DNA of 64,000 bases, taken from Microgenomates bacterium OLB22 (lineage in GTDB: Bacteria > Patescibacteriota > Microgenomatia > UBA1406 > HO2-37-13b). The DNA is taken from contig LLEV01000010.1 of the NCBI GenBank assembly GCA_001567515.1, forward strand, positions 6,801 to 70,800, given 5' to 3'. The notes under the pieces are model-generated. The model did not search any database. It was not told the DNA's origin and saw nothing but the letters and a program-made list of their open reading frames with translations. Position numbers and translations under genes: made by a program. Positions 30,465 to 55,963 of this stretch are shown one piece after another. Every line of letters begins with the position of its first letter. The stretch's first letter is position 1.

Positions 30465-30535
30465 GCACTCTTAGCTCAATAGGTAGAGCGCTCCGCAAGG
30501 TGGGGAGAGTGTAGGTTCGAGGCCTACAGAGTGCA
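30465..30535 (+). tRNA. tRNA-like gene with a non-canonical anticodon arm (identity undetermined)
   Basis: Perfect 7-bp acceptor gcactct/agagtgc, a normal D arm, and T arm gtagg-ttcgagg-cctac. The 17 nt ctccgcaaggtggggag cannot form a 5-7-5 arm with U33. Confidence 0.5.
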
Positions 30536-49697: not shown

Positions 49698-51771
49698 TCA
49701 CGCTTCCTTCTCAACCTCTGGCTTTTCAATTTCCTCTGGCAGTGGGATCTTAGCATCCTTGGCTATCTGCTGAACATTCCAGGCTGCATAAGTGCAGACA
49801 GGATAGTTGCTACAACCGTAAAAACGGCGTTTTCTTCTTCGTGAGCCTCACATAGATATCACCACCACACTTTGGGCATGGGATCTGGATCTTCTCGTGA
49901 AACTGTTTCTTCCCCTTGCAGTCAGGGTATCTTGTACAGGCATAAAATTTACCAAACTTTGAATACCGTATAGACATTGGCGCACCACACTCTTCACACT
50001 TTTCATCTGACTTTTCCTCAATATCGATGTACTTCTTATCTTTAAATTCTGCCTCAAGAGTCTTCTCTACGGGCTGGTAAAATGTCCTAAGCAATTGGAC
50101 CATATCTTCCTTACCCTCTGCTATGGCGTCCAGATCATCCTCCATCTTCGCAGTAAAATCTATACCAAAGACAGCTGGAAAGGCATCACTAAGGTAGTCG
50201 CAGACTGCCGTTCCCAACATTGTCGGGTGAAATTTGCCCTCTAACTTTTCTACGTAATTTCGAGCCTGGACAGTACTGATAGTTGGAGCATACGTCGACG
50301 GGCGACCTATACCGCGTCTTCGAGAGTCTTAATGAGCGACGCCTCCCCATACCGTGGAGGGGGCTTGGTCATATCTTCTTCTGACAGCAATTCCTTAAGC
50401 GCAACTTCTTGCCCTTTTTCAAGTCTCGCATAATGCGTCTCCTGATTTGATACCCCGTACAACGTGAGATAACCCGGAAAAGTGATTATCTCGACTCGTG
50501 ACTCAAATCTATACCCTTCCTTACTAGTGACTTCAAGACTAAATGATAGCCCCTTCGCGCTTGACATCTGTGTAGCTACAGCTTTCTTATAGATTAGCTG
50601 ATAGAGTTTTACATGCCGACTCGAGAGTGTTGCTGTCTCTTTGATATCTGGTTGCAAACGTGTTGGTCTGATGGCCTCATGTGCTTCCTGAGCAAGTTTG
50701 TTTTTTTGATTTAAATACTCGCACATCACTGCTGAGGTAGTCATCGCCATAGGTATCTCTTACATATGCCTGAGCCTTAGCGACAAACTGTTCTGAAAGG
50801 TTAACCGAATCTGTACGATGATAGGTGATATGGCCCTTTTCGTAGAGCTTTTGAGCAATACTCATGGTCATCTTGGCACTATAGCCAAGTACACGAGCAG
50901 CCTCCTGCTGCAGAGTGGATGTCGTAAAGGGGGAAGGTGGATTTTTAGTAGTTTCAGCTTGTTTGAGTTCGGTAATGGAAAAAATGCTCTTTTTAAGATC
51001 CTGCTCGATCTTTTTAGCTCTCTCGGCATCAATAGTTGTTTTGCTAAAGCTGTAGGTACCATCAAATAGGCTTATCTTCTTTGACACGTAATAGTCCTCT
51101 GTCCCTTTTCCAACTAACTTTGCCTCAAAAGGAATTGTCTTTGCCTTAAAGTTGCCTTTTATCTTAAAAAATTCCTCTTGTTTGAACTTCTGGATCTCTT
51201 TTTCCCGTTCTACGATAAATCGAAGAGCGACCGTCTGAACACGACCGGCGGAGAGCCATCTCTTACCCATCTTATTCCATAGAAGCGGTGAGAGCTTGTA
51301 TCCCACGAGACGATCTAGGATACGACGTGCTTGCTGGGCATTGACAAGGTCGACATTAATCTTTCCCGGATGCTGCAATGCATGCTCAAGTGCCTCCTTA
51401 GTGATCTCGTGAAAAGTTATTCTCTGTATAGTCTTTGAAGTCTTCTTCAGCTTACTGTGCGGCCATTTTTCTGTAATAGCATCTAAGATGTAAGCGACAT
51501 GATAGGAGATTGCCTCTCCCTCACGGTCAGGGTCAGTTGCCAAAATGATGGTAGAGGCTTTGGCAGCGATCTTTTTGATGCGATCCACTGTTTCCTTTTG
51601 TTTAGGCAATATCTCATATTGGGGAGCAAAGTCTTTTTCCAAATCAACACCAAATTTTTTTAGCGGGAGGTCTCGAATATGACCGATGGTGGCCTCTACA
51701 GTGATCCCTTTAGGGACTATTTTGGAAAAAGTCTTGGCTTTTGTTGGTGACTCGACAAGTATAAGTTGCAT
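49698..51771 (-). CDS. topA: DNA topoisomerase I, interrupted by three frame breaks (T7 at 50701-50707, about 50311-50316, about 49820-49840)
   Basis: The TOPRIM start MQLILVESPTKAKTF, then AQEAHEAIRPT, GIGRPSTYA, and C-terminal zinc ribbons (CEECG, CPKCGG, FYGCSNYPVC) are all present once frames are shifted. Confidence 0.92.
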
Positions 51772-52425
51772 TAGCGAGGAACAAATTGCGTAATTTCTGA
51801 TTACTAATTTCTAAATTCTATAAAAGCATCGGACACTCTAGTCATTTAGAGTGACAGCAACGTATCTAGCAAAATTTGCTCTAGCTGATTAGATCCTTTT
51901 CCCGTCAGGACGGGATCAGGAAGACGTTACTAGCTATTCTGAATGGCTGTTATTCGTGTGACAATGGTATCGATTGCAAATGAAAAAAGCAACATCCACT
52001 AATCAATTTATCATTGAAAAATGAACATTGCTTCATTCATTTCATACGTGTATACGGTAGGTCCTGCATTATGAGTCTCTCTTTGTGAAACATCAGAGTT
52101 CGTCCATTAGTACGTATAGGCTAAATCCATTGCTGGACTTACACCATACGCCTATCAACCCAGTGATCTCCTGGGGGACTAAAAGATTCCTCATCTTGGG
52201 GTGTGCTTCGTACTTGAGATGCTTTCAGTACTTATCACGTAGGAATATAGCTACCCAGCGATGCCCTTTTGGGACAACTGGTACACCAGGGATTCCCCCT
52301 TCTCGGTCCTCTCGTACTAGAGAAAGGCCCCCTCAAGAATCAAGACGCCTGTACCGGATAGAGTCCGAGCTGTCTCACGACGCTCTGAACCCAGCTCGCG
52401 TATCGCTTTAATGGGCGAACAGACC

Positions 52426-52456
<31 letters not shown>

Positions 52457-52472
52457 CGCTGAGCCGACATCG

Positions 52473-52791
52473 CTCAATTGATGATTTAATTGTTTCCAAT
52501 TAATTTTGACTATACCTTCATCCCGATTTTAAGCGGGGTGCTAACGTTTTATAGAGATAAATATCCCTATCTTCACTCTCGATTAATCGAGAGATCCAGT
52601 CGATACGGGGTCAAGCCACAATAATGTGACCGACTTCCCACGGTATTACCTTTTCAATATTTAACTTTTATTTGTTCGCAAAGCTAAATAGGTTCATGAT
52701 TAAGGTTTCACCGTTATGAGTTAGTTTTCTTAGATTATTACATTATCTAAACAGCACTCAGATTTTACAATCTGAGGACCCCGATATGTTG
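52473..52791 (-). mobile_element. group I-type intron in 23S at E. coli U2500/C2501, no ORF
   Basis: It interrupts GCUACCU|CGAUGUCGG. The 5' exon ends in U and the insert ends in G. Intron nt 7-14 AUCGGGGU complement the ligated junction ACCU-CGAU with a G.U pair at the splice site. Confidence 0.7.
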
Positions 52792-53186
52792 AGGTAGCGA
52801 ACTGCACCGTCGCTGTGGACGCTCAGGTGCAACTACTCTGTTATCCCCGGGGTAGCTTTTATCCGATAAGCCCGGTACCTCCCACGAAGTACACGAGGAT
52901 CACTAGGTCCGACTTTCGTCTCTGCTTGACTTGTGTGTCTCACAGTCAGGCATCCTTATGCCCTTGCACTATCATTCCGATTTCCATCCGGAATTAGGAT
53001 ACCTTTGAGCGCTTGCGGTACTCTTTAGCAAGCAACCTCCCCAGTTAAACTGCCTCCCAGACAGTGTCCTCTCCCTCGATCCAGAGGGATAAGTGAGAAA
53101 CTCACGTTTCAAAGAGTGGTGTTACATGATCGCCTTGCGGCTCCCACCTACGCTACACAGTCAAAACATAAATTTCAGTGCCAAGG

Positions 53187-53219
<33 letters not shown>

Positions 53220-54069
53220 TTACCAGTAGGCCGCATCTTCACAGCCATTTCAATTTCGCCGAGCAGTAGTTCAAGACAGTTTTCATCTCGTTATACCTTT
53301 CGTGCGGGCCGGAACTTACCCGGCAAGGGACTACGCTACCTTAGAACTCTCAGGGTTAGAGCTGTCGTTCACCGGAGCTTGAACCAGGACCTCACCACGC
53401 CATAGGCGGGGATCAACCCCAGTTCTTGACTTACCGGCACTGGACAGGCTTCAGCCTCTATACTTCCCGTTACCGGTTTGCAGAGACCTGAGTTTTTGCT
53501 AAACAGTCGGATGGAATTCTTTTGCTGAGCCCCGCATTGCTGCGGGGAGGGCATATCCCGAAGTTACGCCCAGCTTGTTTGCCGAGTTCCTTGAACTACC
53601 ATAACTTGATCACCTTAGTCTTCTCGACCAGTCCACCTGTGTTGGTTTGCAGTACGGATGCAGTGTACACTCCTGAACATAGCTTTTCTTGGACCCATAA
53701 CGCAACGGATTTCCCCTACCCGAGGGCAGAGTCATATTCGCAACTCCCTTGTCACCAATAAAAGCAACAAAGTCATTACTTAAACTCTCATATAGAAAGC
53801 ACCGTCTATCATAGTTCGTCACTATGCCAGTAATAACGCATACACAACAGTAGGCGAATATTAACGCCTTGTACATCGAGACTTCCCGTTCGGGAGAGCC
53901 CTTAGATCCGACTAACCCTCAGTCGATGTACGTTGCTGAGGAAACCTTGGACATTCGGTGTGCTGGATTTTCACCAGCAGAATCGCTACTCATGCCTGCA
54001 TTCTCACTTCTGCACGCTCCACCATGCCTTACAGCACAGCTTCACTGCCTGCAGAACGCTCCTCTACCA

Positions 54070-54240
54070 CACTCGTCCTCCGGGCGAGAAACTCGAATAT
54101 CTAAATTCTAAATCCGAAACAATATCAAAATCCTAATGATCAAAATTCCAAACTTTAGTAATTTGAATTTAGAAAATTTGGATTTCTCTTGAGTTTCGAG
54201 CTTAGTGCTTCGAATTTCTTGTCCGAAGGACAAGCATCTC
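54070..54240 (-). repeat. ~170-nt expansion replacing 23S helix 45, containing a copy of the AT-rich dispersed repeat
   Basis: Lies between CCGACGCUGGAG and UGGUAGAGGAGCGUUC, where E. coli has a 22-nt hairpin. Contains caatatcaaaatcc (54120-54133) and ctaaattctaaa (54101-54112). Confidence 0.7.
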
Positions 54241-54325
54241 CAGCGTCGGCAGATTGTTTAAGCCTCGATCATTTTCGGCGCATTATTGCAACCCCGCCAA
54301 AGGCGGGGAGTATTACGGTGAGCTG

Positions 54326-54367
<42 letters not shown>

Positions 54368-55890
54368 CGTCTGTCTTTGCAACAACACTTCCTTTCCCAC
54401 TTAACAATCATTTAGAGGCCTTAGCTGGAAGTCTGGGATGTTTCCCTTTTGCCTAGACTCGCTTATCCGAGCCAGACTGACTCCTCTGGAACAACTTCAC
54501 GTATTCGGAGTTTGGTTGGTTTGACTCACCGAAGCTTGACAAACCATCCAGTAGCTCTACCCCATGAAGTCTTAACAGAAGGCTATACCTAAATATATTT
54601 CGAGGAGAACCAGCTATCTCTAGGTTCGATTGGCATATTACCTCTAACCACAGCTCATCCCAAGTCATTTCACCGACAACGGGTTCGGGCCTCCCTCCGC
54701 CTTTCGGCGGAGTTCACCCTGGCCATGGTTAGCTCACCTAGTTTCGGGTCTACCTGTAGCTGCTAAAGGCCCTATTCAGACCCGCCTCCTCTCGGAGGAC
54801 TCGCTTTCGCTTCGCCTTCGCACTTTAAAGTGCTTAAACTTGCAGCGTACAGATAACTCGCAGGCTCATTCTTCAATAGGCACGATATCATCAGGTACCA
54901 GACGGTACCTGACTCTATCTGTTTGAAAGCTTATGGTTTCAGGTACTATTTCACTCCCCTCACAGGGGGACTTTTCACCTTTCCTTCACAGTACTCGTTC
55001 ACTATCGGTCGATTTGAGTATTTAGTCTTGGAGCATGACCGCCCCAGATTCCCACAAGGTTGCCGTGTCCCGTGGTACTTGGGATACCTCTAAGCCAGTG
55101 GTGCATTTCGCATACAGGACTTTCACCCCCTATGGTCGTTCATTCCAAAAACGTTTTGCTATACAACACTGATGCTATATTGAGGTCCCGCAACCCCCCG
55201 CCAAAGGCGGGGTTTAGACTCATCCGCGTTCGCTCGCCGCTACTGACGGAATCTCATATGATTTATATTCCACTAGTTACTTAGATGTTTCAGTTCACTA
55301 GGTTCCCTCCCCGATATAAAATCGGGGTCCCCCGCCTTTCAGCGGGGTGGGTTGCCCCATTCGGAAACCGCCGGTTGATCGCCTGCTAGAGGGCTCACCG
55401 ACGATATCGTGCTCATGCACACGTCCTTCTTCGGCTCAAATCGCCAAGGCATCCACCATAAGCCGTAGCTCTGATGTCTCACAAACAAAGATTCATTTTT
55501 TTTGAAAATTTGAAATTTCTTTTCAAAAGATGCATTACCTACCGTATTGTCAACGTACAGTTGCTATAAGCAACATCGTAGGCACTTTTTACATGCTCAC
55601 GAAACTGCTTATATAAAAAGGGCGCGTACCCGTCTTACTTTCCATTTGCCTTCTAGGCCTTGGTCCACCTACGCTCATACATGACCCATGGCTTACAGCA
55701 ACGCTGTCAAAGTGTTCGCTTTGGCGGGACACAAGAGTTTCTAATTCTGCACTATTTTGTATTTGCGGAAAGAAACTCTAGCGTGGACCGGAAGGGATTC
55801 CCTTTAATAAACTCAGTGTAGACTTCTCATCCCTAATCATGATCCTACTTCTGTTCTTTCATACTGAGTGAGCGTGAGCGAACCGAAGTG

Positions 55891-55963
55891 TGGACCCGAG
55901 GGGATTCGAACCCCTGACCTTCCGCGTGCAAGGCGGACGCTCTACCAACTGAGCCACGGGCCC
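55891..55963 (-). tRNA. tRNA-Ala(TGC)
   Basis: Cloverleaf with G3:U70 and anticodon loop ctTGCac. About 400 nt upstream of 23S on the same strand. Confidence 0.9.

Follow-up and report, generated by a model that had tools for sequence, protein, structure and literature searches.

A Predicted Group I Intron Without Open Reading Frame After U2500 of the 23S rRNA Gene From a Roizmanbacteria-Like Bacterium

The 23S rRNA Gene and Its Insert

The subject of this analysis is a 319-nucleotide (nt) insert in the 23S ribosomal RNA (rRNA) gene on a stretch of 64,000 nt from Microgenomates bacterium OLB22 (contig LLEV01000010.1, positions 6,801 to 70,800 of the forward strand), which is referred to as the window in the following. 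Only one 23S rRNA gene is present in the window. It is located on the minus strand at 52088..55477 and matches the Rfam model LSU_rRNA_bacteria over its full length (model positions 1-2925) with 2218.8 bits. Global alignment to rrlH of Escherichia coli K-12, from which the E. coli numbering is taken throughout, placed the insert at 52791..52473 on the minus strand, exactly between U2500 and C2501, whereby intron nt 1 corresponds to window position 52791 and nt 319 to position 52473. The same coordinates and the same site had been proposed in a first-pass annotation, which had left out the strand, and were reproduced by the alignment. We are highly confident that the insert is a group I intron of subgroup IA type, which is located after U2500 in the window's only 23S rRNA gene, lacks an open reading frame (ORF) and belongs to a Roizmanbacteria-like host.

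The 5′ exon closes with ...GGUGCAGUUCGCUACCU (last letters GCUACCU), the insert opens with CAACAUAUCGGGGU, and the 3′ exon after the insert opens with CGAUGUCGGCUC. In a longer reading, the two ends of the insert are CAACAUAUCGGGGUCC...AUCAUCAAUUGAG with AAUUGAG as last letters, and the 3′ exon continues as CGAUGUCGGCUCAGCGCAUCCUGGGG. The boundary is ambiguous by one base, as a C can be placed on either side, and was settled by relatives whose insert starts in T. The upstream exon ends in U (U2500) and the insert in G (the terminal or omega G, intron nt 319, at 52473), both of which had been described before. It had also been claimed that the insert splits an exon string spanning E. coli 2494-2510; the interruption by 319 nt holds true, whereas the string actually covers 2494-2512.

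Close to its 5′ end the insert contains a 10-nt guide, AUAUCG|GGGU, which is complementary to both exon ends. The P1 part of the guide, GGGU (intron nt 11-14, 52778..52781), pairs with the exon strand ACCU (E. coli 2497-2500, 52792..52795), whereby U2500, the U of the 5′ splice site, and G11 form a wobble pair, as read from the sequence and the alignment. The P10 part, AUAUCG (intron nt 5-10, 52782..52787), pairs with CGAUGU of the 3′ exon (E. coli 2501-2506, 52467..52472) in 6 base pairs (bp) including one G.U, and this helix is also returned by RNAalifold. A guide at intron nt 7-14 with combined P1 and P10 pairing was part of the first-pass annotation; the sequence at these positions, AUCGGGGU, is as it had been given, and the pairing extends further, to nt 5-14. 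The G|GGG motif of the guide is present in 98 of the 99 inserts that we delimited at position 2500 (see below). This recurrence and the contrast in GC content between the insert (35%) and the exons (50%) argue that the signature of the insert is not due to chance.

Fold of the Insert and Comparative Support

The unconstrained minimum free energy (MFE) fold of the insert gives P2, P2.1, P4, an extended P5, P6, P7, P7.1, P7.2, P8, and P9. When the P3 pseudoknot, P1, and P10 are added to this fold, the canonical helix order is complete and runs along the RNA as P1, P2, P2.1, P3, P4, J4/5, P5, P6, J6/7, P7 5′, P7.1, P7.2, P3 3′, P8, J8/7, P7 3′, P9, and the terminal G319. All of these elements are located on the minus strand. 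P2 (intron nt 16-35, 52757..52776) is a hairpin of 8 bp from the MFE fold with a GUAA tetraloop, the loop being of GNRA type in most relatives, and changes on both sides were seen for 7 of its 8 pairs. It is followed by the P2.1 hairpin of the MFE fold (nt 42-62, 52730..52750) and by the 5′ strand of P3, CUAAC (nt 68-72, 52720..52724), which pairs with the 3′ strand GUUAG (nt 247-251, 52541..52545), located by alignment, and forms a pseudoknot with P7. The corresponding P3 strands of relatives are CUAGUC/GACUAG (locus L025), UGGGC/GCCCA (L010), and GUGGC/GCCAC (L060). The P4-P5 domain (nt 78-152, 52640..52714) consists of P4 (ACGGUG/UACCGU), J4/5 (AAA), and P5 (CCUU/AAGG), whereby the P5a/b extension (nt 91-139) is specific to the present intron. 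The P6/P6a/P6b hairpin (nt 153-185, 52607..52639) is the site at which relatives carry their endonuclease ORF.

The 5′ strand of P7, GACUG (nt 191-195, 52597..52601), with the bulged C190 was taken from the MFE fold; in the 3′ strand UAGUC (nt 280-284, 52508..52512) C284 pairs with G191. The 3′ strand is part of a conserved core, GAUGAAGGUAUAGUC, which is present in most of the 99 delimited inserts. Between P7 5′ and P3 3′ there are two hairpins, P7.1 (nt 199-216, 52576..52593) and P7.2 (nt 222-241, 52551..52570), the latter supported by the alignment and RNAalifold. P8 (nt 252-273, 52519..52540) comes from the MFE fold, has a register that is ambiguous by one base, and includes many compensatory pairs in RNAalifold. 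J8/7 (AAGGUA, nt 274-279, 52513..52518) matches the consensus AAGAUAUAGUC of the Rfam group I intron model RF00028 (Intron_gpI) and is invariant in the alignment described below. P9 (nt 289-306, 52486..52503) is a hairpin of 7 bp with a GAAA tetraloop in the MFE fold, and in relatives it shows a covarying stem with a GNRA loop. J6/7 reads GUAUC, and P7, J6/7, and J8/7 are invariant or nearly so in 24 sequences. By its place in the core, the G191-C284 pair of P7 together with the bulged C190 is a candidate for the guanosine-binding pair. The combination of P7.1 and P7.2 is a hallmark of subgroup IA, to which the modelled structure would assign the intron. The more specific label IA3 would follow from this P7.1/P7.2 architecture and from the naming of introns at position 2500 of the large subunit (LSU) rRNA as IA3 by Nawrocki et al. 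(2018; PMC6125680).

For comparative analysis, the insert was aligned with 23 relatives without ORF, each with 10 nt of exon on either side (24 sequences in total). With the P3 pseudoknot taken into account, 84.6% of the cells of the full model are standard pairs compared to 36-44% in slid controls, a comparison favoured by the origin of the model, which is considered below. Changes on both sides were observed in 46 of the 76 model pairs (25-35 in slid controls), the covariation score was 0.303 (at most 0.141 in slid controls), and not one of 500 shuffles attained any of these three observed values. RNAalifold, which was applied to the same alignment without a model, returned P10, P2, P4, P5, P6, P7, P7.2, P8, and P9, with compensatory changes in 37 of 61 pairs. 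Among the individual helices, P3 is paired to 92.5% with changes on both sides in four of five pairs, P6 to 92.1% with such changes in five of six, and P4 and P5, for which covariation was also seen, to 100 and 94%, respectively. Both-side changes affect all seven pairs of P7.1 and all eight of P7.2 (85.3% paired). Four pairs of P7 are invariant in all 24 sequences; as a search for the 5′ strand of P7 with a simple regular expression turned out to be unreliable, alignment and covariation were used instead. In P1, 23-24 of the 24 sequences retain the pairs C-G, C-G, and U.G, the U.G itself being retained in 23. P10 is paired to 95.8%, although covariation on its exon side is invisible since the 3′ exon is fixed by the search pattern. 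The modelling of P3-P9 and the inspection of P7 for a guanosine-binding pocket had been named by the first-pass annotation as ways to check its assignment: the complete model could be built and is backed by covariation, and a G-C pair that is invariant among the relatives occupies the presumed guanosine-binding place.

These features also bear on the question of whether the insert could instead be an intervening sequence (IVS), which would be excised by RNase III without ligation and would leave the 23S rRNA fragmented. Bacterial 23S rRNA genes, including those of the Candidate Phyla Radiation (CPR), do carry IVSs (Tsurumaki et al., 2024; PMC11270868), and the alignment to rrlH revealed one further large insert in the present gene, namely about 150 additional nt at helix 45, which form a hairpin resembling an IVS. 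The 319-nt insert, however, is a multi-helix, pseudoknotted group I core and not a single long hairpin that replaces the tip of helix 25 or 45, its position within the central loop of domain V is single-stranded, it has the signature of U, omega G, and guide, and it is homologous to group I introns with endonuclease genes. Furthermore, the named IVS sites 23IS2 and 23IS4 are distinct from the group I sites 23IS6-14 (PMC11270868). Thus, we consider an IVS highly improbable.

The helix 45 expansion is located at 54070-54231 on the minus strand and gives a single long hairpin on folding (-62.8 kcal/mol, z = -5.05). Helix 45 (here E. coli ~1174-1185) is a classical site of IVSs that are processed by RNase III.

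Relatives at Position 2500 and the Endonuclease Question

The first-pass annotation had found no homing endonuclease ORF in the insert. This was confirmed by an ORF scan, in which the longest sense ORF comprised 22 codons, and by a tblastn search of the insert with the endonucleases of relatives, which matched only 6-9 residues that correspond to the ribozyme core, so that neither an intact gene nor a pseudogene remnant was detected in the insert. In order to collect introns at the same site, one genome per bacterial or archaeal species was scanned for a G directly in front of CGAUGUCGGCUC, a search that relies on the universal conservation of U2500. The scan yielded at least 120 loci, and the terminal G is shared among them by selection, as a G before C2501 was required. 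In at least 99 of these loci an insert could be cleanly delimited between U2500 and C2501. According to the record titles, the hosts belong to many lineages of Patescibacteria, to Actinomycetota, Chloroflexota, Omnitrophota, Planctomycetota, and Gammaproteobacteria (including a Coxiella endosymbiont), whereby some of the host bin labels are doubtful. With at least 99 genomes from many phyla, the position-2500 family reaches much further among metagenome-assembled bacteria than would be expected from the classical literature, which fits recent surveys.

The lengths of the 99 inserts are bimodal, with 67 inserts of 247-464 nt and 28 of 780-915 nt. An ORF of about 190-210 codons that includes a GSLLGDG motif is found in most of the long forms; in the locus L076, a Pfam search identified it as LAGLIDADG_2 (PF03161; E = 1.1e-38). 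The absence of an ORF from the present insert does not speak against its family membership, because about two thirds of the sampled members also lack one (the ORF scan was applied from 500 nt upwards, and 67 of 99 inserts stay below this length). A J8/7-P7 core, GAUGAAGRUAUAGUC, is common to most inserts across the phyla. The closest intron among the matches listed is the one of L076 (3859-4721 in that locus), which is about 73-74% identical at both ends, is flanked by an identical 22-nt exon sequence, and has about 630 extra nt, namely the endonuclease gene, in the loop of P6. L005, L011, L067, and others carry an ORF as well. In the ORF-bearing relatives, the N-terminus of the endonuclease, (G)NTVGS, is encoded by the P5′/P4′/P6 strand, so that the same nucleotides serve the RNA core and the protein; in the present intron this strand is GGUAAUACCGUGGGAAGU (intron nt 142-159). 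Judged by site and ribozyme homology, the present insert is assigned to the position-2500 family that is associated with LAGLIDADG_2 and that uses this site repeatedly for homing.

An uninterrupted GCUACCU|CGAUG junction was found in at least 120 metagenome contigs, and the nearest of these to the present 23S rRNA gene, among the matches listed, shares 88% identity with it over the junction. Some related lineages thus possess the intron and others lack it, as is expected for a mobile element.

The collection of relatives also allows us to judge whether the intron of a foreign organism was joined into this 23S rRNA gene by an assembly or binning artefact. The data appear to be metagenome-derived, the adjoining topA gene is frameshifted (see below), and several database bins with such introns have doubtful taxonomic labels. 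On the contrary, the junctions fit to the exact base at either end, at least 99 independent assemblies, among them closed chromosomes, have an insert at this site, and the nearest intron, that of L076, is located in a 23S rRNA gene with the same flanking exon. An artefact of this kind is hardly credible.

Some of the loci deserve mention in their own right. L104 (a Candidatus Undinarchaeota archaeon bin) and L105 (a Planctomycetia bin) both have a 780-nt insert at position 2500, and they agree in length, in the first 25 and last 15 nt, in the flanking exon, in the ORF coordinates, and in the first 60 residues of the ORF. Such agreement across an archaeal and a bacterial label looks like mis-binning or a very recent transfer. 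L015, the Coxiella endosymbiont of Ornithodoros amblus, has an 832-nt insert in which no ORF of at least 80 codons is intact; it may contain an endonuclease gene in decay, and the lineage is known to harbour further introns in its 23S rRNA. For a number of loci that were collected by the G in front of C2501 (L017, L008, L033, L072, and others), the motif GATAACAG (E. coli 2447-2454) was not found upstream, which may point to further introns nearby in domain V; among these, L017 is from Roizmanbacteria and is the closest to the window in its 23S sequence among the loci listed. L121 is NZ_AP027616.1, the 2911-bp E. coli “plasmid” pLR-72_4, which carries a 23S rRNA gene with a non-E. coli 5′ end and motifs and is probably a contaminant contig.

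Rfam and Profile Searches

A scan with RF00028 had been suggested by the first-pass annotation. When the insert was searched alone, the model covered it from end to end (model positions 1-253) with 36.0 bits and an E-value of 9.5e-8; in a search of the entire window in E-value mode the same match had an E-value of 1.6e-5 and was the only one of its kind. At Rfam gathering thresholds, the window scan returned the rRNA and transfer RNAs (tRNAs) only and no intron match. In order to see how relatives behave, eight loci (L076, L048, L053, L025, L001, L010, L088, and L060) were scanned with Rfam. All seven position-2500 introns that are located inside the eight loci scanned stay below the RF00028 gathering score as well, whereas in L060 the position-2500 intron falls outside the detected 23S rRNA. 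The low score is thus a trait of the position-2500 family and not a defect of this copy, since none of the seven relatives reaches the cut-off. Probably, RF00028 misplaces the 3′ strand of P3 owing to the P7.1/P7.2 insertion and therefore scores low. Other introns in the 23S rRNA genes of relatives did match RF00028 at the gathering score, namely at 77-323 in L060, 2610-2866 in L010, and 2988-3223 in L076.

As the RF00028 score lies under the cut-off, it was not relied on alone. A profile hidden Markov model, built from the 23 relatives after removal of the exon columns and of the present sequence, matched the insert with an E-value of 2.8e-31 over profile positions 7-318 of 327. Of the features that define membership in Intron_gpI, a P1 with U.G, the omega G with P10, an ordered core with pseudoknot, and the candidate guanosine-binding G-C pair of P7 were found in the insert, whereas the gathering score is not reached. 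In practice, pipelines that apply RF00028 at the gathering threshold will miss the seven position-2500 introns tested and the present one, which is likewise in line with recent surveys. If the intron goes unrecognised, the 23S rRNA gene seems to have 319 nt in excess and to be disrupted at the peptidyl-transferase loop, so that the importance of the finding lies mainly in correct annotation.

Short P1 and Integrity of the Intron

The usual exon sequence GGCACCU is replaced in the host by GCUACCU, a change at the base of helix 89 that is compensated. In hosts with GGCACCU the guide goes on as GGGUGC(C) and gives a P1 of 6-7 bp, and one relative has a compensatory pair, with the exon GGUACCU and the guide GGGUAC. 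In contrast, all seven GCUACCU hosts, including the present one, have the guide GGGUCC, and P1 ends at 4 bp because this guide is not matched to the lineage-specific exon. Since the short P1 is common to seven independent genomes, it is probably tolerated.

Several points weigh against the assignment as an intact group I intron. P1 has only 4 bp here compared to 6-7 bp in relatives. The RF00028 score of 36 bits is lower than the curated gathering score of 50 bits, which is an operational threshold and not a structural definition. P2.1 is the least certain helix, as it is paired to 58.5% and aligns weakly among relatives. The tested structure was derived from the present sequence, which biases the percentage-paired comparison; the counts of compensatory changes and RNAalifold are less affected by this. 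The topA gene next to the 23S rRNA gene is frameshifted, so that assembly indels may also touch the intron.

Some of these points would also be expected for a decayed group I intron that has lost its splicing competence, and that either remains part of the mature 23S rRNA, which has been reported of the L1931 intron of Simkania, or marks a non-functional copy of the rRNA gene. The shortened P1 with its guide unmatched to the GCUACCU exon, the RF00028 score under the gathering cut-off, and the disruption of the adjacent topA over at least three frames, by which the region could be decaying, are in line with this, and a 23S group I intron that is not spliced has been recorded before (Everett et al., 1999, as entered in the reference list of PMC11270868). 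However, none of the core helices is disrupted and all agree with the covarying consensus of the family, P7, J8/7, and J6/7 are identical to the family-invariant residues, and the same GGGUCC guide in six other GCUACCU hosts suggests tolerance. Moreover, with 2218 bits the exons match a full 23S rRNA, and an extra 319 nt in the peptidyl-transferase loop would be hard to reconcile with an active ribosome. A decayed intron is hence quite unlikely. It is also very unlikely that the intron splices poorly or with the assistance of host factors, a reading for which the short P1 is the main argument, as the helix 89 pairs of the host changed without a corresponding change of the guide. In this case its removal would be a rate-limiting or regulated step in ribosome making and, in the extreme, the intron would be kept in the rRNA as reported for Simkania; the host concerned would be an ultra-small bacterium that probably has a single rRNA copy.

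Proposed Splicing and Mobility

For an intact group I intron with the observed anatomy, the splicing chemistry would be that of the established group I pathway. The guide of the precursor rRNA would pair with the exon end ACCU to form P1, in which U2500 is presented in the G.U wobble with G11. A free guanosine held in the G191-C284 pair of P7 would then attack after U2500. Subsequently, the P7 pocket would be occupied by G319, with the 3′ exon CGAUGU kept in place by intron nt 5-10 (P10). The freed 3′-OH of U2500 would attack after G319, by which the exons would be ligated and the loop ...ACCU-CGAUGUCGGCUC restored.

The position-2500 family presumably spreads by the LAGLIDADG_2 homing endonuclease that is encoded in the loop of P6. 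The present copy may have lost the endonuclease gene or may never have had it; most simply, it would be a descendant of an ORF-bearing form. As it is without an endonuclease gene, it should be unable to home on its own. Its ribozyme presumably stays intact because damage to it would cost the host the 23S rRNA.

Comparison With Known Introns

The best comparison is provided by the survey of Tsurumaki et al. (2024; PMC11270868), in which 348 CPR 23S rRNA genes were examined, 82% of them with insertions, and 433 group I introns were detected with RF00028 at an E-value cut-off of 1e-5, 222 of them without ORF. The present insert would pass this cut-off. The introns of the survey gather at recurrent sites with a bias to the 3′ part of the 23S rRNA, forms with and without ORF are interspersed at the same sites, and the ORFs include LAGLIDADG_2. 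As the survey cites it, Brown et al. (2015) stands for the removal of such insertions from CPR transcripts. These introns, which are scattered over the host phylogeny, share with the present one the host group, the gene, the bias to the 3′ domain, and the occurrence of ORF-less and LAGLIDADG forms, and we see no substantive difference. Position 2500 may be one of the survey sites 23IS9-11, which lie between 1952 and 2593.

Introns of the IA3 type at LSU/2500 have been described from archaea by Nawrocki et al. (2018), according to whom all positions of their introns except SSU/1498 (in the small subunit rRNA) had been seen for group I introns before (PMC6125680). They are located at the same E. 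coli position, and the IA architecture is consistent with P7.1 and P7.2 of the present intron; they differ in that they belong to another domain of life and measure about 800 nt, and are thus likely ORF-bearing, compared to 319 nt without ORF here, the comparison being one by description only. Bacterial 23S introns with P7.1/P7.2 and with endonuclease ORFs that extend from a peripheral loop as far as the ribozyme core were described by Haugen et al. (2007; PMC1995217). The cyanobacterial L2593 introns and that of phage Twort resemble the present intron in P7.1/P7.2 within the P7 region and in a short P2, and the extension of the ORF into the core is reminiscent of the GNTVGS N-terminus encoded by the P5′/P4′/P6 strand in relatives of the present intron. 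The cyanobacterial introns, however, occupy a different site and all have full-length endonuclease genes; the likeness noted here is one of architecture. The introns of Thermotoga (L1931) and Coxiella burnetii (L1917 and L1951), which bear the term self-splicing in titles within the reference list of PMC11270868, are likewise bacterial group I introns in domain IV/V of the 23S rRNA, but they belong to other sites and other intron lineages. In contrast, the 832-nt insert of the Coxiella endosymbiont (L015) shares the site of the present intron. Taken together, everything found fits the descriptions in PMC11270868, PMC6125680, and PMC1995217, and the present intron is an ordinary member of a large, documented family.

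Host and Genomic Neighbourhood

The window encodes UvrA, UvrB, UvrC, TopA, Obg, and iPGM. The named top matches of UvrB are all from Candidatus Roizmanbacteria, Microgenomates, Woesebacteria, or Patescibacteria, the best with 90% and the next with 68% identity. The exons of the 23S rRNA gene are nearest, among the loci listed, to Roizmanbacteria (78.9%) and Woesebacteria (77.5%). These sequence matches identify the probable host as a Roizmanbacteria-like member of the CPR/Patescibacteria.

The topA gene adjoins the 23S rRNA gene at 49810-51771 on the minus strand and is distributed over three or more reading frames. The first (51771..50677) encodes 364 amino acids (aa) with the Toprim domain and the first half of the topoisomerase domain, the second (50750..50307) 147 aa, and the third (50220..49810) 136 aa with the zinc-ribbon C-terminus. 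The split points to either assembly indel errors or a decaying gene.

Neither a 16S rRNA nor a tRNA-Ile or 5S rRNA was found in the whole 64-kb window. Of the eight relatives' loci that were scanned, seven have a 5S rRNA downstream of the 23S rRNA, the distance being about 50-200 nt in six cases and about 2.3 kb in L060. Upstream of the 23S rRNA gene there is a tRNA-Ala(UGC) (region 52088-55963 and flanks). A further tRNA at 30465-30535 on the plus strand, which was called as tRNA-Pro (Rfam tRNA, 50.3 bits), has the unusual anticodon AGG and is located 2 nt upstream of a tRNA-Trp(CCA).

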